Of a DNA stretch of 64,000 nt, positions 54,738 to 64,000 are shown one piece after another. Position 1 is the stretch's first letter; each line of letters opens with the position of its first letter. This stretch comes from an uncultured candidate division Zixibacteria bacterium (GTDB taxonomy: Bacteria > Zixibacteria > MSB-5A5 > UBA10806), in contig CAWFQL010000012.1 in NCBI GenBank assembly GCA_963817915.1, positions 512,001-576,000 of the forward strand, given 5' to 3'. Below the pieces are notes generated by a model. The model saw only the letters and a program-made list of their open reading frames with translations. It ran no database searches and was not told where the DNA came from. The translations under genes were made by a program, and so were the position numbers.

Positions 54738-55232
54738 ATGGAAAATCTATGGGCGGCCTGGCGCCGCGATTTCATTTTGGGCCCCAAAGAGAATGGATGC
54801 GTATTCTGCAAAAGATTGAAGCAGCATACTGACCGCGACAATCTGATACTTTTCAGGGCTCGTAAAACCTTTGTAATTATGAACCGCTATCCGTACAATG
54901 GCGGCCATCTATTAATCGCGCCCAAAGCCCATAAGGCTGATATACAAAAACTGACCCCATCCGAATCCGCCGAAATGTTCGAGCTTTCTCGAATCGCCAT
55001 TGGCATGCTTAAAAAGATAATGCCGGCCGACGGATTCAATCTGGGAATGAATTTAGGTGAAATCGCCGGGGCAGGCATCGCCGATCATCTTCATGTGCAT
55101 GTAGTGCCTCGTTTCAACGGTGATACCAATTTCATGCCGGTTGTAGGCGATACCAAAGTGCAGTCTTTATCGCTTTACGATATCTACGACATGCTGAAGC
55201 CGAAATTCGATTCCATCAGAGGGAAATTTTGA
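54738..55232 (+). CDS. HIT family protein (Ap4A phosphorylase-like)
   Basis: LWAAWR, CVFC, NRYPYNGGH, GFNLGMN, HLHVHVVPR, DTNFM. Confidence 0.9.
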   Translation: MENLWAAWRRDFILGPKENGCVFCKRLKQHTDRDNLILFRARKTFVIMNRYPYNGGHLLIAPKAHKADIQKLTPSESAEMFELSRIAIGMLKKIMPADGFNLGMNLGEIAGAGIADHLHVHVVPRFNGDTNFMPVVGDTKVQSLSLYDIYDMLKPKFDSIRGKF

Positions 55233-56827
55233 AGATTCCCAAAAAGAAAGAACTGCTTCAACTTCAAAAAAAATACCGCACTGATAAAAAGATCGGCGAG
55301 GTTTATGGCGTACCCGCGAGACTGGTAGCTTATTGGCGTTCGAAGAAGAAAATAGGCCCGTATTCTTTCCCGAAATATTCCGAAGACAAAATTATGGATA
55401 TTTGGGAAAGGTTCGGTGATGATGCCCGCGCCGGAACCGAATTGGGAATCTCCAAGGCCGGATTCAGGCAATGGCGCCGGAAATATGACATCATAGACAA
55501 GCCGATTCAGTTAAGGCTCGAGCAGCTCGAGCTCCCTTTGACCGATATATCAAAAAAGAAAAATTCGCGAAAAGAAACCATTGTCCAGCGAATCCTTGCC
55601 AGGAAGGCAGGATTGAAACGAGCCGACGTCGGCCAATTTATCGAAATCGAGCCAGACCTCGCGATTTCCAACAATAACGCCATCGATGTTATCAATCAGA
55701 TGGCGTCACTTGGCACTGATAGAATATGGGATCCATCAAAGATCGCGATTGTCCTTGATCATAGAACGACCAGCGAATCCAACGGTTCGATTCATAAATA
55801 TAAAACCGCTCGGGAATTTGCCAAAAAGCATCGAATCAGGAATTTCTTCGATCTCGGAGAGGGAATGTGTCATCATCTTGTCCTCGAACAGGGCCTCGTG
55901 CTTCCCGGACATACTATACTGGGGACCGAAACCTACGCGACCACCTATGGCTGTATCGGGGCATTTTCCGCCAAAATCGATGTCTTAGAAATGGCGGCAT
56001 TATGGGCGACAGGCAGGATATGGCTCAGGGTCCCGGAAACCATGAAGATCGTATTAAAGGGACATTTGAACAGGGGAGTATTCGCGAAAGATATTATTCT
56101 GAATCTAATTCGCGATATTCCGGTCAGCGATGTTGATTATAGGGCGATTGAATTCTCCGGCCCCGCCATTCAAGCGATGTCAATGGCTGATCGTTCAATC
56201 TTGACAAGTATGGCCTCCGAAATGAAGGCGAAATCTGCGATCATTTCAATCGATGAGATGGCATCGAGATATATGAAGAAAATTACAAAGATGAAATTCT
56301 GGCCGATAACGCCTGATCCCGATGCCGCCTATAGCCATGAAATCGAATTTGATATTTCCTATCTGACTCCGCAGATCGCCTGCCATGCCGGGGCCAACAA
56401 TACACGTCCTATCGAGGAAATGGTTGGCAAAAAAATTGACCAGGTAATATTGGGCAGTTGTATCAATGGGAAAATCGAGGATCTCGAAATCGCCGCCGGT
56501 ATTTTAAAAGGACGAAAAATCAATCGCGAATTGCGGATGACAATTGTACCGGGTTCGAGAAAGACATACCTCGAGGCTCTCGAAAAGGGGTTGATCAAGA
56601 TATTCGTTGAATCCGGCTGCGCGGTTGCGTATCCCGGACTCGATTCGTATTCGGGAGTCGATGATAGCATCCTATCTTCCGGGGATAAAATAATGACTAC
56701 GACCGGTTATCAAACCGATATCGAAAATGATAACGTTAATTCCGAGATATTTATTGCCTCCCCGGCAACCACGGCAGCCTCGGCGCTCGAAGGTATAATT
56801 GCCGACCCGAGGAAATATATCAAATGA
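55229..56827 (+). CDS. Tandem-HTH fused LeuC/HacA-like aconitase-family large subunit, catalytically degenerate
   Basis: Two HTH-like units (aa about 18-42 and 64-88), then ETIVQRILA, VLDH, GMCH, ATGRIWLRVPET, AKDIIL, GSCING, ASPATTAASA. Confidence 0.85.
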   Translation: MKIPKKKELLQLQKKYRTDKKIGEVYGVPARLVAYWRSKKKIGPYSFPKYSEDKIMDIWERFGDDARAGTELGISKAGFRQWRRKYDIIDKPIQLRLEQLELPLTDISKKKNSRKETIVQRILARKAGLKRADVGQFIEIEPDLAISNNNAIDVINQMASLGTDRIWDPSKIAIVLDHRTTSESNGSIHKYKTAREFAKKHRIRNFFDLGEGMCHHLVLEQGLVLPGHTILGTETYATTYGCIGAFSAKIDVLEMAALWATGRIWLRVPETMKIVLKGHLNRGVFAKDIILNLIRDIPVSDVDYRAIEFSGPAIQAMSMADRSILTSMASEMKAKSAIISIDEMASRYMKKITKMKFWPITPDPDAAYSHEIEFDISYLTPQIACHAGANNTRPIEEMVGKKIDQVILGSCINGKIEDLEIAAGILKGRKINRELRMTIVPGSRKTYLEALEKGLIKIFVESGCAVAYPGLDSYSGVDDSILSSGDKIMTTTGYQTDIENDNVNSEIFIASPATTAASALEGIIADPRKYIK

Positions 56828-57344: not shown

Positions 57345-57373
57345 AAAAAAGGGCGAAAACATTCGCCCTTTTT
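57345..57373. terminator. Bidirectional terminator
   Basis: AAAAAAGGGCGAA-AACA-TTCGCCCTTTTT between convergent genes. Confidence 0.8.
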
Positions 57374-57393: not shown

Positions 57394-58467
57394 CTACTTC
57401 AATAATGTCATCCTCATCGTGTGAACATCCTTACCGTCGGTTATGCGATAGAAATATATTCCCGACGATACGGCATTCCCGCTATTATCGGTACCGTTCC
57501 AGGTAACCGAGTAGGAGCCTTTTTCCAATGAACTATTGACAAGATCCTTTATCAGCGAGCCGGTGATATTATAAACCGCAAGGTTTACATCTCCGCCAGC
57601 TGATTGGAAATTAATCTTGGTTTCAGCATTGAATGGATTCGGATAATTCTGGCTTAATGTAAAGTTGTCGGGCAGGGATGGAATTTCGACTATGCCCGTA
57701 GGCTGCCGAAGATCTGATACCGGTATTTTTGCGCCCTGAACAATGTGCTTGGCACCAGTTCCGGTTTGGTCGGACTGAACAAAGGCAATCAACTCGCAGC
57801 TATCGGCTACAATAGGACTCGGCGTGGTGAAACTGACTGCAAAGGTCGTATCATCGCCGGCATTAAGCGTGATTGCCAGGCCATTGGTGCCGGGAAACAT
57901 ATCTCTGAAGACGCTTTGGTGCCAATCTCTGCCATAAATTCCATTGTAATATATACCGGATTCGGTGAGAGCTATTCTCAATTTTAGGGAAGTATACCCG
58001 GGGGCTTCTTCCGCGACAATTCTAACCGAAACGACTCCCCTTAGGGAATCACGATCGAATGTGCCGGACAGTTGCATGAATAATGGCGAAGGAATCAGGC
58101 TTTCAGTTTCGATTCGTGTTTCATACTGCCCATAACTACTCGGAATGATGTTGCCATCAATCCTCATATAGGGGACATATGGAACGTTGTAATAGTTTTG
58201 AGTGCGAGTACGACAATCTGACATGTTGTAAAGCCAGAACATGTCATTGCCGGGGCTCGGCCACCACACATGGTAATTGATGAGCGCAAGAATATCTGCT
58301 TGCTCAATACGCAACCGATCTAAGACCAGATCGGCGGATGGACAATTGGGTCACGTAGTGCTGGTAAAATTTTCGCCAACCACCATTCTATCGGCGGCGA
58401 CGACGATGCTGCTCATACTAATTAGCGCTATGGCCATTAGCATCACAAATTTTTTCGCAACTGACAT
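57394..58467 (-). CDS. Omp28-like thioredoxin-fold secreted selenoprotein (Sec39, UxxC) with FlgD/T9SS-type C-terminal domain
   Basis: AAAGGAGG RBS, ATG 58467, signal peptide, GENFTSTT-TGA(58353-58351)-PNC in frame with track ORF 57394-58314; YHVWWP, C-terminal LSQNYPNPFN...SSGIYFYRI...MTLLK. Confidence 0.85.
58315..58334 (-). promoter_or_regulatory. Bacterial SECIS-like hairpin
   Basis: CCGATCT-GGTCTT-AGATCGG starting 16 nt after the UGA; G-led loop containing GGTCT. Confidence 0.75.
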
Positions 58468-58660
58468 TAAGCCTCCTTTGGTGTCAATTTAGGGTTAATA
58501 TAACTTCTTTTCGGTTTTTTGCAACAATAAACATTTGCCCTTGTCAACTTCACATTCTTTAACTTGCTGTCTTTCAATGGCATAGCCGGATTTTTAAATA
58601 TCGCTCCGTCATTCATTTTTACGGTTTAGGGTAAGATCATCCAATATTTTATCGCCATAT

Positions 58661-60109
58661 CTAAAATCTCGAAAAAACGGTGACTCTTGTTCCTCGAAAT
58701 GTCGCTCTCACCTGGCAGACTCCGGACGAGCAGAGCAATCCGCCTCGTTCACCACCATGGAAAACGATTAGCTCATGGGATTTAAATCTAAGGGTGGCTT
58801 CGACATATGCCATTTTCTTGGAATCACTTGAATACTTATTATTCGATTTTGATCCGCCGAAATTGATTTGAAACAAACTTCCCCGCGAATAGCCCAATAT
58901 AGCGTAATCCTCATGATATGATGGCAATTCATTTGGCCAGAATCGTCTCGAATAAAGTGTTGCCGATACTGTTTGTTTTTCATCGAGATAGTAATATCCG
59001 TCAAAGTACGTTTCGATTTCTCTTCCTTCGGGGACATTCGGCGAAGAATCAAAACGGTCCCAGTGAAAATTGATCGTAGTTTTCGAAATCGGACTCCATC
59101 GCACACCGACAAATTTTTCCGCGAGATATTCATGTAGGGAATCTCTTGAATAGGCTTCCGAAAACGCCAGATCGAAAGTGAGATCGTAGTTAGGGGAGAT
59201 TAAAGTGCCGATCTGATACCCGTATTCGCTTAGTGTGCCCTTAAGCGAGGCCAGCGATCTTCCCTGATGACTGACCGGAGGCGGCAAATTAAACGATGAT
59301 ATCCCCAGGAAACCGGGATACAGCAGGCGGAAATAGTTTTTATACTCGCCGTAGATATTGAAAACTCCCTGATTCACTGAACTCGTGAAGTAGATGCCGT
59401 CGCCTGATATGGGATTGCCGAATTCATCGACTCCTTTTTTCATCGCGTATTCCGCATAAATATCAAAAGGTCCATAGGTGAATCCTGAGTTAAATGCCGT
59501 CAGGTTTATATTGGCGGCTTTTTCAGAGGCAACAATATTGTTTTGTTTGAAGCGCACATAGGAGAATCCGGCCTTAACAGGCGCGATGGGTTTTATGGCT
59601 CCCCTTGCGCCCCGGATAATAAATTCTCTTTCGCCGGTCAGCGAATTTAGGGCTCTTGCCGATAAAGCATCGAATTCATAGTGGTCGTAAAGCCCGGAGA
59701 ATTTGACGCCATCGAGGTTGTTATCGAAATTAACAACATCGTCGAGGAAGGCGTTAAGGGTAAGGCCCCTGTCGAATGCCTGATAAAAATTGCCAAGGTG
59801 AACAGTCAATCCGCCGTCATGCCATCCGAAATATCTCTGAACTGTTTTTTCATAGGACATATCCGGTTTGTAAGGCTCCAATACTCTTAGCCAGGTTCCG
59901 GCATAGAAATCACCAAGATTGAAATCGACATTAAAGCGATTATCAAGCGAGTCTTCTCGAGTATCCCCATGATGCCAGTACTGCATCCAATTGGCCGCGG
60001 AAACGGTCCAAACATTGCTCTGGGCAAGGCTCGAAGCGGGCGCTAGTAGCCATTCTGCCGCAAAGACCGCCAATATCGCCGCGGCGTAAAGAAGATATTT
60101 ATGCCGCAT
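58661..60109 (-). CDS. DUF6029-like outer-membrane beta-barrel protein
   Basis: Signal peptide, GNFYQAFDRGLTL, amphipathic strands, C-terminal GGERGGLLCSSGVC and terminal Phe. Confidence 0.72.
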   Translation of the reverse strand: MRHKYLLYAAAILAVFAAEWLLAPASSLAQSNVWTVSAANWMQYWHHGDTREDSLDNRFNVDFNLGDFYAGTWLRVLEPYKPDMSYEKTVQRYFGWHDGGLTVHLGNFYQAFDRGLTLNAFLDDVVNFDNNLDGVKFSGLYDHYEFDALSARALNSLTGEREFIIRGARGAIKPIAPVKAGFSYVRFKQNNIVASEKAANINLTAFNSGFTYGPFDIYAEYAMKKGVDEFGNPISGDGIYFTSSVNQGVFNIYGEYKNYFRLLYPGFLGISSFNLPPPVSHQGRSLASLKGTLSEYGYQIGTLISPNYDLTFDLAFSEAYSRDSLHEYLAEKFVGVRWSPISKTTINFHWDRFDSSPNVPEGREIETYFDGYYYLDEKQTVSATLYSRRFWPNELPSYHEDYAILGYSRGSLFQINFGGSKSNNKYSSDSKKMAYVEATLRFKSHELIVFHGGERGGLLCSSGVCQVRATFRGTRVTVFSRF

Positions 60110-60652
60110 TTATTTCCCCAGGTCCGACTTGGTAGTATCAGCGGTCAGGGAAACAAGATTGTCCTTGATTAACTTTTCAACCGCAACTTCGTCGCCGGGC
60201 TTGAATCCCACCGATGAAAAAATGATTTTGCCCTGCGGATCGGTAAGCACTGAATATGGGGTCGCGAAACCCTTGAATTTACGTCTGAAGACTTCGCCGT
60301 CATTATCGAATAAAACATTGAATGTCCAGCCACTTGATTTTACGAAGGCTTTTGCTTTCCCATAGGCCTTAGGTCCTTCGCTATTGATAGCATATACAAT
60401 AAATCCCTGGTCTTTGTATTTTTCATAGAGTTTTTCAACAATCTTGAGCTCTTCGACACAGGGCTTGCACCATGTCATCCAGAATGAAATGTAGATAGGA
60501 CCTTTTCTGAAGTTATCCGATAACTTTACGATTTTGCCATCGATATCGGGCAAAGTGAAATCGGGCACCATCTTTGTCTTAAACTCCTGGCCGTAGGCCA
60601 CTGAGCCTATTAGCAGCGCCATAACCACACAAATTGCAGTCGATAATCTCAT
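60110..60652 (-). CDS. TlpA-family thiol-disulfide oxidoreductase
   Basis: Signal peptide, PDFTL, FWMTWCKPC, ATP cis-Pro loop. Confidence 0.9.
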   Translation of the reverse strand: MRLSTAICVVMALLIGSVAYGQEFKTKMVPDFTLPDIDGKIVKLSDNFRKGPIYISFWMTWCKPCVEELKIVEKLYEKYKDQGFIVYAINSEGPKAYGKAKAFVKSSGWTFNVLFDNDGEVFRRKFKGFATPYSVLTDPQGKIIFSSVGFKPGDEVAVEKLIKDNLVSLTADTTKSDLGK

Positions 60653-60896: not shown

Positions 60897-60935
60897 TAAA
60901 AAAAAACGCCGACGTATCGACGCGTCGGCGGTTTT
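60897..60935 (-). terminator. Rho-independent terminator
   Basis: CGCCGACG/CGTCGGCG stem with long T run on the minus strand. Confidence 0.75.
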
Positions 60936-60951
60936 ACTTTGATTGATTTTT

Positions 60952-63900
60952 TTAGAATTCGGCCCCGAATGAAAAATACCATTCCGGTCTTGGTGCGAAA
61001 TGTTTCAGATTCGTGGCCCAGGCTACATCAACCCGGAGCACAAAGATGCCTAAATTCGCGCGCGGCCCAAATCCGATACCGCCAAGCATTTCGCCCGGAC
61101 GTCTGACAGTATCCTTTACAGGGTCTCTAAGATGGGCATGAGAGATATTACTGCTACTGTTCGAAGTATCACCCCAGGCCATTCCCATATCCCAGAAGAG
61201 CGCGCCTGATATTTGCCCCAAGGTCATCGGCAATGGAAATTGCATTTTAAAATAATCAATGAATGGATAGCGGAATTCGAAATTCGTGATCCAATATCTC
61301 GTTCCAGAGTCAGAAAAGTATTTGTATCCTCTGAGCGGAACAACTAACTCATTCAGGTAAATATCCTTCACATTGAATATATCGCCTTGAGATCGTTTGG
61401 GGCCTATCCAGTTCGCTGTTCCCCCCATATAATACCTCTTGGCATCGGGACCTCCTGAAGCCGCGGCGCCAAACCTGAAGGCGAAATTATAGCGTGTCCA
61501 AAAATGCCAGTAATTGCGGTAATCGGCCTCAACAGCATGATATGAAAGGTCTGAACTGACCACCTTTATAGATTGTTCAAGCGCAATTTTATATCGATGT
61601 CCGGATACAGGTCCCACTATTCCCCAGATGACGGAATCATTGATATATTCCAGATTTGCATTTAGTATGTTTTTCGTCTCATTGTCCTTGCCATTATAAT
61701 CAAAATTATCTCTGGCAATTGTGGTTTGCGAAAGAGTGAAATCCAGACGCGTAAATTTCGAGAATGGATATGACACATATCCCTGAGCTCCGTAAACGCG
61801 GTCCGAGAAATAAAAGTTATTGTAATCGTCGTAATATAGATTTTTAAAGTGGAACACACCGAAAGCCAGATTCGGCCTGTGAGCGGTATATGAGTACGCC
61901 AGTTGAAAATTCGATTGGTCTATCGTATTGACTAAATCGGTGTACAAGAAGAAGTGATGATTGCCAAACATATCCGAAACCGAGAGATAGGACTGTCCCC
62001 GCAAACCGTAGAAATTGTCATAAGTAAATCCGCCGGATACCAATTCGGGCGCGAATTTTAATTTGTAAGGGTGTTCAATATAACTGCCGTCCGCTTTTTG
62101 GTATTTAAGTGTATCCAAAACGGCATGTAAGGAATCAATCTCAATATTCTGGGAAGTGGTCGTATCTGCAGGAGTTTCGCTTTGCTTTGAGACAATTTCG
62201 CTTTCGCCCGCGTGAAATACATAGGTGCTGAAATCGAGGTTTGCTTTTTTGGTTGTATCCGGTTTGACAGTAACCGTATCCGATACCGCCACGACTTTGG
62301 GTACAAAGAAATTTTTATCGCCGCTTCTCAGCTTTTTCATGAAGGAAGTCAAAGACAATTCACTTTTGTCATCGCCGACATTTTTGATATTTTTAAGCGC
62401 GTAAATATCGAATCCCAATTTAAAGAATCCTGAGTATGCAATTTGATCGCCGTCGGGTGACCAGGTCGGGGTGAACGCTCCGGAAATAAGATTTGTTACA
62501 GGGAATGTCTTCTTGGTGGCGATTTCATAGATATAAATATTATCAATGCCATTGCGGTTAGATATGAAGGCAATCCTCTGGCCGTCCGGAGAGAATGCCG
62601 GCTGATCATCTTTATATGGTGATTCAATCAGGGGCGAAATCGTGTCAGCCTCGGAGTCGCAGAGGAATATGTTGTAATCGCCATATTTAAATGTCGAATC
62701 CGGTATTCCGTTGAAGGGCCTATCCGACGCGAACGCCAAAAAGCGGCTGTCCTTATCCCATGAGGGATTGGTGTCATCGTATAGGTCGTTCATCAGCTTG
62801 TCTAATTTGCCGGTGTCCAGATGATAAACATATATATCGGCAAAACCATGATCTATTCCTTCGAACGCTATCTTCTTACCATCGGGAGACCATGATGGAT
62901 TTCTCATTTCGCCTAATTTAAGATCGATTTTTTTCTTTCGCTTGCCATTATCAGCGTTATAGATAAGAAGCATGTCTCTTCCGTGGCTCTTTCCTACAAA
63001 TGCCAGTTCCGTACCATCAGGTGACCAGGTAAGCCCCGAGACATACGAATGCAATGATTCGAGATCGCCAGATCGTTCGGCTTTTATCAGATGCGATATG
63101 ATTTTACCATCTACAGTGGAAATAATGAAAACATCGTTATATCTGTCGGAGTAGCCATTTTGCGGATTAGCACGATCGGAGAAGAACGCGAGTCGGTCGC
63201 CCTTTGGTGACCAGACCGGTTTCTGATTGTATAATGAGCCGTCCTTGACATGATTTGTCAATGCTTTGGAAATTTCCTCGGGCTCTTTTCTTTCGGCAAT
63301 TTCGGGCCAGTAAACACGCCTTAAGTCCTTCTGCCAGTCATCTGAAAGGTCCTGAATCGAGACTCCCAGCGCGGCTTTCACTGCCCGTTCCATGGTCTTA
63401 TGATATTTGCCCTTATTCAATATTTCGGCTATTTTTTCTTCACCGTATTTTTCGGAAATATATTCCAAAGCGGATTGGCCACCTTTATACGCGAGAAAAC
63501 CGTCGAGAAAATCGAGCGGAGGCATATAGCCTGCTGTAATAGCATCTCGCGCGTACATGTCGGCTTCGAGTTCCCATCCGTGTCTTGAAGAAAATTCGGC
63601 GTAACCCTCGGAAAACCATAATGGCGGCTGGAATAGCGCCTCCGCCGATAGGATCGAACGCAGGGTATTGCCATAAAGTAAATTGAACCAAACCGCATGG
63701 GTTAATTCATGATGAAGCACATGGCGAAATTCTTCATATGAACCTGTGAATGGAATGGTCATCCTATTTTTGAACGCTTCGGTAACGCCGCCGACACCTT
63801 CCGGTATAATATCCGAAATAACATTGGTTTGTTCGAATTCACCGTGAGACGCGTATAGAATTACCGGGACCCGTTCGGTAAGATTGTAGTTGAGCTGTTC

Positions 63901-63999
63901 TTTGATCTCATTGTAGGCAACTTCAAGTGTTTTAGCCGCGAATGTTGCCAGGGTGTCTTCGCCTTTATAAAAGTAGACATCGAAATGTGGTGTCTGGAT
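60952..63999 (-). CDS. Zincin (HExxH) + PD40/TolB-like propeller + Omp85/BamA-type barrel protein; 5'-truncated by window edge
   Basis: Frame open to 63999 (IQTPHFDVYFY...), HELTH, PLWFSEGYAE, multiple P-WSPDG repeats, PLRGY, C-terminal FSFGAEF. Confidence 0.85.
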   Translation of the reverse strand: MQTPHFDVYFYKGEDTLATFAAKTLEVAYNEIKEQLNYNLTERVPVILYASHGEFEQTNVISDIIPEGVGGVTEAFKNRMTIPFTGSYEEFRHVLHHELTHAVWFNLLYGNTLRSILSAEALFQPPLWFSEGYAEFSSRHGWELEADMYARDAITAGYMPPLDFLDGFLAYKGGQSALEYISEKYGEEKIAEILNKGKYHKTMERAVKAALGVSIQDLSDDWQKDLRRVYWPEIAERKEPEEISKALTNHVKDGSLYNQKPVWSPKGDRLAFFSDRANPQNGYSDRYNDVFIISTVDGKIISHLIKAERSGDLESLHSYVSGLTWSPDGTELAFVGKSHGRDMLLIYNADNGKRKKKIDLKLGEMRNPSWSPDGKKIAFEGIDHGFADIYVYHLDTGKLDKLMNDLYDDTNPSWDKDSRFLAFASDRPFNGIPDSTFKYGDYNIFLCDSEADTISPLIESPYKDDQPAFSPDGQRIAFISNRNGIDNIYIYEIATKKTFPVTNLISGAFTPTWSPDGDQIAYSGFFKLGFDIYALKNIKNVGDDKSELSLTSFMKKLRSGDKNFFVPKVVAVSDTVTVKPDTTKKANLDFSTYVFHAGESEIVSKQSETPADTTTSQNIEIDSLHAVLDTLKYQKADGSYIEHPYKLKFAPELVSGGFTYDNFYGLRGQSYLSVSDMFGNHHFFLYTDLVNTIDQSNFQLAYSYTAHRPNLAFGVFHFKNLYYDDYNNFYFSDRVYGAQGYVSYPFSKFTRLDFTLSQTTIARDNFDYNGKDNETKNILNANLEYINDSVIWGIVGPVSGHRYKIALEQSIKVVSSDLSYHAVEADYRNYWHFWTRYNFAFRFGAAASGGPDAKRYYMGGTANWIGPKRSQGDIFNVKDIYLNELVVPLRGYKYFSDSGTRYWITNFEFRYPFIDYFKMQFPLPMTLGQISGALFWDMGMAWGDTSNSSSNISHAHLRDPVKDTVRRPGEMLGGIGFGPRANLGIFVLRVDVAWATNLKHFAPRPEWYFSFGAEF

Positions 64000-64000
64000 A

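Follow-up and report, generated by a model that had tools for sequence, protein, structure and literature searches.

A selenoprotein gene has been mis-called at positions 57394–58467 of the minus strand of the window (i.e., the whole stretch of 64,000 nucleotides that was analysed, belonging to an uncultured Zixibacteria bacterium), and its recognition as a real selenoprotein gene can be stated with high confidence. On the basis of translation, profile and structure matches, it is an Omp28/HBP35-like gene of 357 codons, whose only in-frame TGA (58351–58353) is predicted, from translation and homologue alignment, to encode the selenocysteine (Sec39) of a U-P-N-C motif having Cys42 as its partner. 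The initial annotation had placed a ribosome-binding site, an ATG and a signal peptide 38 codons upstream of this TGA, and the coordinates were confirmed: the ATG is located at 58467, 4 nt downstream of a Shine–Dalgarno sequence (AAGGAGG, 58472–58478), the TGA is codon 39, embedded in the motif ENFTSTT-U-PNC, and the frame remains open past it up to a TAG at 57396–57394. The N-terminus is basic at its beginning and contains a hydrophobic core, where the 11-residue hydropathy reaches 2.7, with a helix predicted for residues 2–17. From these features a signal peptide (residues ~1–24) can be proposed; it is followed by a thioredoxin-like plus Ig-like Omp28 module (~25–255) and by a T9SS type-A/FlgD-like tail (~275–357). 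Cysteine or Sec residues are found at positions 39, 42, 85 and 224, none being present before 39. The gene had also been described as missed by the ORF track, and the ORF list does contain only the 306-aa piece downstream of the TGA; the public protein record (P0002) is a 282-aa piece starting from Met76. A hairpin resembling an intrinsic terminator, recognised by consensus match only, lies 3′ of the gene (57346–57373, minus strand). The 193 nt separating the Omp28 gene from the preceding DUF6029 gene contain a weak sigma-70-like promoter match (58497–58524, minus strand), of a kind that is no more frequent than in shuffles.

The genome harbouring the window encodes the machinery for Sec insertion. 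The four genes whose presence had been indicated as a check are arranged in one selC-selD-selA-selB cluster (C6:198041–202492), all of them over the respective cut-offs; the tRNA-Sec scores 66.5 bits (cut-off 47) and, having the anticodon TCA, is the sole TCA-anticodon tRNA found, while the selD gene itself contains a TGA within a CAGU motif. An alternative genetic code can be ruled out, since TGA is an ordinary stop that terminates 375 of the 1297 long ORFs. Among the 61 related genomes sampled, selA is present in 59, and no Sec-less genome carrying Omp28 was found.

Other observations concern the selenoproteins of this genome and of its relatives. A genome-wide screen based on motif plus hairpin returned 456 candidates, mostly due to chance, and few of them were credible after stricter filters. 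A thioredoxin-like protein with a W-U-G-A-C motif (G000 C6:121118, minus strand) and two proteins with a PG-U-GC motif (G000 C12:84627, minus strand, and C5:29966, plus strand) are likely exported selenoproteins. Six credible Sec candidates were found in the genome, both Omp28 genes included, and five of them have signal-peptide-like starts. The second Omp28 gene (L051; G000 C12:166787, plus strand) shows a TGA at the corresponding position (TNTG-U-SYC), ends in a dockerin-like tail and is not located beside the barrel gene; it retains only a degraded form of the hairpin (6 bp, 8-nt loop, −7.3 kcal/mol). In several genomes of the same class (L125–L133), selD is embedded in frames of 700–800 aa without TGA, which are probably fusions.

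Homologues of the N-terminal domain of the Omp28 protein were retrieved from 33 of the 61 related genomes, several of which have from two to four tandem copies, with up to 12 matches in a single genome. Out of 125 matches, 75 contain one TGA (in 31 of the 33 genomes) and 43 contain none; seven partial ones were set aside. The codon at the Sec site was read in 30 loci and in the genome's own paralogue, leaving out one match that does not cover the site. It turned out to be TGA in 25 sites and TGC/TGT in the other 15, with nothing else in the whole set of 40, the homologues being kin and the site and hairpin counts therefore not independent; the position of the TGA was read for these 25 and for some further copies among the 75 TGA-bearing matches. 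The initial annotation had proposed to look for a Cys/TGA alternation at this site and had assigned the TGA to the first Cys position of the thioredoxin-like motif; the alternation was found at the exact site, and the Cys codons of the homologues agree with that assignment. Two peculiar copies can be mentioned: a homologue with a C-U-x-x-C motif (L092) and a tandem copy apparently frameshifted about 35 codons past the UGA (L031:884).

Downstream of the TGA, the coding sequence contains a SECIS-like hairpin (58314–58335, minus strand, encoding A-D-L-V-L-D-R). The perfect 7-bp stem that had been described 16 nt downstream of the TGA is indeed there, with seven Watson–Crick pairs at 58334–58315, and its GGTCTT loop (58327–58322) begins 23 nt past the TGA; with two additional G-U pairs, the minimum free energy is −11.6 kcal/mol. 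The criteria that PMC13188914 gives for bacterial SECIS elements are a loop of 3–9 nt, a stem of 4–16 bp, a G in the first two loop positions, a spacing of 16–37 nt and a minimum free energy not higher than −7.5. A bacterial SECIS prediction had been suggested as a further check, and the hairpin of the window lies within all of these ranges (G-led loop of 4–6 nt, stem of 7–9 bp, spacing of 23–24 nt, −11.6). No SECIS family match was obtained from an Rfam scan at this hairpin. The selD gene of the same genome exhibits a similar GGTCC loop, and that of nearer relatives a similar GGT-loop hairpin.

The stability of the hairpin cannot by itself be taken as proof of Sec insertion: its z-score is −2.57 on 46 nt and weakens to −1.12 and −0.56 when 60 and 100 nt, respectively, are considered, and 172 of the 124,753 TGA triplets of the genome have, at the same distance, a GGT-loop stem of at least seven pairs. 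It is the conservation among the homologues that sets the hairpin apart from a chance structure. A GG-led loop with at least six pairs in the same register is present in 22 of the 25 TGA copies vs. none of the 15 Cys copies, which couples the hairpin to the TGA; the three TGA copies lacking it are the genome's own paralogue and two copies of another genome (G024). The codons forming the hairpin are nearly invariant (Val GTC 22/22, Leu CTG 21/21, Leu TTA 18/22), and genome-wide the same codons are minority ones (32%, 19% and 15%, respectively). In the alignment of 24 TGA copies, 89.6% of the cells pair, vs. 15–37% in slid controls; five cells are changed on both sides, one of which comes from a G024 copy without the usual hairpin, and the C-G pair of the window itself is among the others.

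A scan of species-representative genomes with a DNA pattern, which detects only the copies provided with this hairpin, disclosed 40 loci: 24 in entries named Zixibacteria, nine in entries named uncultured Ignavibacteria, four in entries named uncultured bacterium, and three others representing chance matches, so that true members of the Omp28 family account for 37 of the 40 distinct sites. The relationships among copies were analysed on an unrooted tree of 53 rows, in which the Sec site and the residues encoded by the hairpin were masked and one 50-residue fragment was left out. Mapping the Sec label onto the tree required 11 changes, at least eight of which are forced by well-supported branches; judging from these sequences, a single bacterial class has seen no fewer than eight swaps between Sec and Cys. 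In some of the Cys copies nested among Sec copies (L028, one L033, one L023, L034), the hairpin region is only 2–4 mismatches away from the consensus, and in the deeper Cys copies it differs at 8–12 positions. These near-intact relics suggest, on an unrooted tree, a recent reversion from Sec to Cys.

A further regularity concerns the base preceding the Sec UGA (58354 in the window; homologues L021–L050), which is a G in 23 of 25 TGA copies vs. four of 15 Cys copies; when a Ser codon directly precedes the UGA, it is TCG in all 15 cases. A G precedes 42 of the 375 true TGA stops and the Sec TGA of selD in six of 14 cases. A pairing partner that might explain this G was looked for and none was found; the G may represent a weak-termination context.

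The possibility that the TGA acts as a genuine stop, that it stems from a pseudogene lesion or from an error in the assembly, or that some other mechanism decodes it as Cys or Trp, has to be weighed against these data. It would find some support in the fact that the codon is known from assembled sequence alone, small shares of three sequencing runs having contained no piece across it, that the hairpin is not significant on the longer stretches, and that a tail-bearing product of 282–306 aa could begin downstream. However, homologues from many genomes share the TGA at the same codon (25/40), in every case with frames open on both sides, the hairpin is absent from the Cys copies, tRNA-Sec stands alone among the tRNAs found in having a TCA anticodon, and a downstream start would lose both the signal peptide and the active site, which makes this explanation very improbable.

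As for the protein, the initial annotation had called it Omp28-like, and it does pass the cut-off of the Pfam Omp28 family (PF11551; 47.6 bits vs. 34.9). The tail, which had been referred to as a FlgD/T9SS-type one, is over the cut-offs of Pfam FlgD_ig and Por_Secre_tail and of the C-terminal sorting domain TIGR04183 (37.2 vs. 23 bits), and its model matches the C-terminal domains of PorU and PorZ (Z 9.7 and 8.9). The model of the protein (pLDDT 91) finds its best structure match in HBP35 of P. gingivalis (PDB 5y1a; E 8.5e-16, Z 25.8, rmsd 2.4 Å over 228 residues), and a sequence profile aligns the UxxC motif at the position of the thioredoxin redox pair. Homologues of SprA, PorV and PorU, all over cut-off, are encoded by the genome, together with many proteins having the same T9SS tail; no match to the motor gene GldM/PorM was found in the genome, and none was obtained in the control genomes either. 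Since the tail is over cut-off and the core genes SprA, PorV and PorU are present, the Omp28 protein is likely carried to the cell surface. The idea of an exported selenoenzyme advanced by the initial annotation is supported by the Sec site, the fold, the tail score and the T9SS genes, from which both activity and export are deduced. More than ten PorV-family matches over cut-off occur in the genome, and one match to this family (G000 C9:137778–138701, plus strand), interrupted by three TGA and one TAA, is probably a broken gene. A literature search disclosed no paper on type IX secretion in Zixibacteria.

Omp28-related UxxC selenoproteins had already been predicted, and what is described here is a divergent branch of them, the members of which are truncated by gene callers. 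GOS_C, a thioredoxin-like UxxC selenoprotein predicted in 2008 by Zhang and Gladyshev, was represented in the GOS data by 74 Sec and 312 Cys sequences, with no function reported in the sections of that paper that deal with it (PMC2398784); in Table 1 of PMC13188914, it is equated with the NCBIfam model NF045500, "Omp28-related selenoprotein". The window protein shares with GOS_C/NF045500 the thioredoxin-like fold, the UxxC near the N-terminus and the alternation of Sec and Cys, and the GOS_C example in the supplement, compared by eye and unaligned, has its Sec in the same E-x-F-T-x-x-x-U-x-x-C setting past the signal peptide. The NF045500 profile matches residues 24–270 of the window protein (E 4e-13) and, in a comparison with 73 relatives, reaches at best an E of 4e-22. 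However, the window protein scores 49.4 bits vs. a cut-off of 200, i.e., it is not a member by score, and none of the 151 genomes of the phylum passes that cut-off (best 83.7 bits). On these grounds it belongs to a branch of its own, apparently a Zixibacterial one. What distinguishes this branch from GOS_C is a fixed SECIS of its own, which encodes ADLVLD, together with a tail of the T9SS type-A or dockerin-like kind.

By fold, the closest known protein is HBP35, with which the window protein shares the signal peptide, the thioredoxin motif, the Ig-like module, the C-terminal secretion domain and the overall fold (PDB 5y1a; PMC2907840), although their identity is just 13–15% and HBP35 has Cys where the window protein has Sec. 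HBP35 reduces insulin, for which both Cys are needed, is reported to complement E. coli dsbA, and binds hemin through a region other than the Cys pair; this thioredoxin activity was shown in vitro and for HBP35 only, the window protein being likened to it by fold (PMC2907840). The similarity to Omp28 lipoproteins (PF11551, NF033782, PDB 2r2c) comprises the Pfam score and a structure match (Z 9.4); unlike them, the window protein has no N-terminal lipidation Cys, scores 47.1 bits vs. the NF033782 cut-off of 150, and carries a T9SS tail instead.

The Omp28 gene is the last of a conserved TlpA-DUF6029-Omp28 order, which the initial annotation had overlooked. Upstream of the Omp28 gene, and on the same strand, lie a gene for a DUF6029 outer-membrane beta-barrel of 482 aa, recognised by profile and model (58661–60109), and a gene for a TlpA/ResA-like periplasmic thiol-disulfide reductase of 180 aa with a WCKPC motif, recognised by profile (60110–60652), whose stop abuts the ATG of the barrel gene. 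DUF6029 and Omp28 co-occur in an identical set of 33 of the 61 genomes; Omp28 is directly downstream of the barrel gene (within 500 nt) in 29 of these 33 and within 7 kb in 31. TlpA is directly upstream of the barrel gene in 29 of 30 loci, and all 28 complete TlpA copies there have a CxxC; neither the TlpA motif nor that of the barrel showed a Sec in these 30 loci. The Omp28 copies adjacent to the barrel gene are divided into 15 with TGA and 14 without out of 29, therefore Sec is not required for the module.

The barrel model (pLDDT 92) has approximately 24 long strands, and its nearest folds are the PapC/FimD ushers and AlgE, none of which is close (best TM about 0.59). Two invariant Cys of the barrel, Cys460 (codon at 58732) and Cys465 (codon at 58717), form part of a short hairpin preceding the last strand. 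This Cx4C represents the sole invariant Cys pair of the barrel, being found in 79 of 81 close relatives (the two exceptions lack that end) and in 142 of 146 distant representatives. The C-terminal Phe strand of outer-membrane barrels ends in the periplasm, and from this rule the Cys hairpin of the model would start on the outer face. The Sec at the Omp28 motif supports a possible redox role for the TlpA-DUF6029-Omp28 module, and it is likely, judging from gene content and order, that the Omp28 selenoprotein is functionally tied to the TlpA and the barrel encoded upstream.

Further along the window, a gene at 60952–64000 (minus strand), located upstream of TlpA and separated from it by a terminator-like hairpin (60907–60930), encodes a large protein with a peptidase-MA-like region, PD40 propeller repeats and an Omp85 barrel. 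At 55229–56827 (plus strand), there is a large subunit of the aconitase family that is extended at its N-terminus by about 115 aa without Pfam match, and its gene is followed by a small subunit gene.

Taken as a whole, the data make it probable that the gene encodes a Sec-containing, HBP35-like thiol-disulfide oxidoreductase that the T9SS exports to the surface, a prediction covering three joint steps. In the first, SelB, together with the Sec-tRNA, would attach to the GG-loop hairpin that lies 23 nt past the UGA and insert Sec39, which is almost certainly the case. The signal peptide would then direct the protein across the inner membrane, and its type-A tail would lead it along the SprA/PorV/PorU route, as can be assumed with good probability. 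Finally, and very probably on the basis of fold and motif, the selenolate of Sec39 would attack disulfides or oxidised thiols of a substrate and Cys42 would resolve the intermediate. A fourth step can be proposed tentatively from gene order and Cys conservation: the enzyme might be recharged from CcdA/DsbD to TlpA, from this to the Cys460/Cys465 hairpin of the barrel, and from there to the surface enzyme; this is the preferred recharging route, although the step is regarded as rather doubtful. DsbD/CcdA and TlpA/ResA form reducing pathways across the inner membrane, which are not known to extend beyond the periplasm; the TlpA encoded here is of the usual CxxC type, and two DsbD/CcdA membrane domains occur in the genome. 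A relay that crosses the outer membrane would be plausible. In its full extension, it would make of Omp28 the selenium-bearing end of an undescribed outer-membrane thiol relay, running from CcdA/DsbD through TlpA and the 24-strand barrel to a surface selenoenzyme, and this picture is judged to be unlikely. Within such a relay, Sec would be confined to the outermost member and exchanged with Cys at least eight times, therefore pointing to a catalytic, oxidant-exposed step.

Only the fourth step is at stake in the competing reading in which the selenoprotein is a redox enzyme without any trans-membrane relay, the barrel serving as a pore for export or assembly, with a Cys pair that is a structural disulfide maintained by TlpA, and Omp28 being the cargo of the barrel or a folding catalyst for secreted proteins; the chances assigned to it fall slightly short of even. 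Structural disulfides are common in barrel loops, and the barrel model is large and most similar to the PapC/FimD ushers and AlgE (at best a TM of about 0.59). A possible role of DUF6029 in polysaccharide export has also been suggested via HHpred similarity (PMC9603273), and HBP35 is reported to complement E. coli dsbA (PMC2907840). Against it, all three neighbours possess a conserved Cys pair, the one of the barrel comprising its only invariant Cys and being retained as Cx4C even in distant relatives (142/146), and Omp28 has a T9SS tail of its own, which would make another pore needless. It can also be imagined that Sec is inserted and that the U-x-x-C is a metal or heme ligand of a surface scavenging protein rather than a catalytic redox pair, since HBP35 is a hemin binder that sustains growth when hemin is scarce (PMC2907840), and several genomes have from two to four tandem copies and up to 12 matches, multiple copies being common for binding proteins. 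Yet the Cys pair of HBP35 is dispensable for hemin binding and needed for reductase activity (PMC2907840), and the motif is placed between the first strand and the helix, where classic thioredoxins align; this explanation is accordingly considered improbable, and the catalytic reading of the Sec39/Cys42 pair is the preferred one.

The literature search revealed no continuation of the DsbD/CcdA-TlpA pathway through an outer-membrane barrel, no paper joining Omp28 with selenoproteins and none describing the TlpA-DUF6029-Omp28 trio. BSepDB, whose genome table has at least seven "zixi" rows, may already hold such genes under GOS_C (PMC13326102). In the available portions of the respective texts, the PorA paper (PMC7712824) has no passage on Omp28 or on an operon, and deep-Sep (PMC12013277) makes no mention of outer membrane, T9SS or Zixibacter.

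The family represented by this gene is a multi-copy one (75 TGA-bearing matches in 31 genomes of the sample), truncated in public protein sets with the loss of the signal peptide and of the active site, and missed by the existing selenoprotein model NF045500. Its near-invariant hairpin provides a simple detector, given that 37 of the 40 scan sites are true family members, and the pairs of Sec and Cys sisters, in which the hairpins are decaying, represent a compact system for following how Sec is gained and lost. The gene also points to selenoenzymes as cargo of type IX secretion. If the relay were true, it would account for the way in which HBP35 and other surface thioredoxins regain their reducing power, and this could be tested in culturable hosts of the Cys type.
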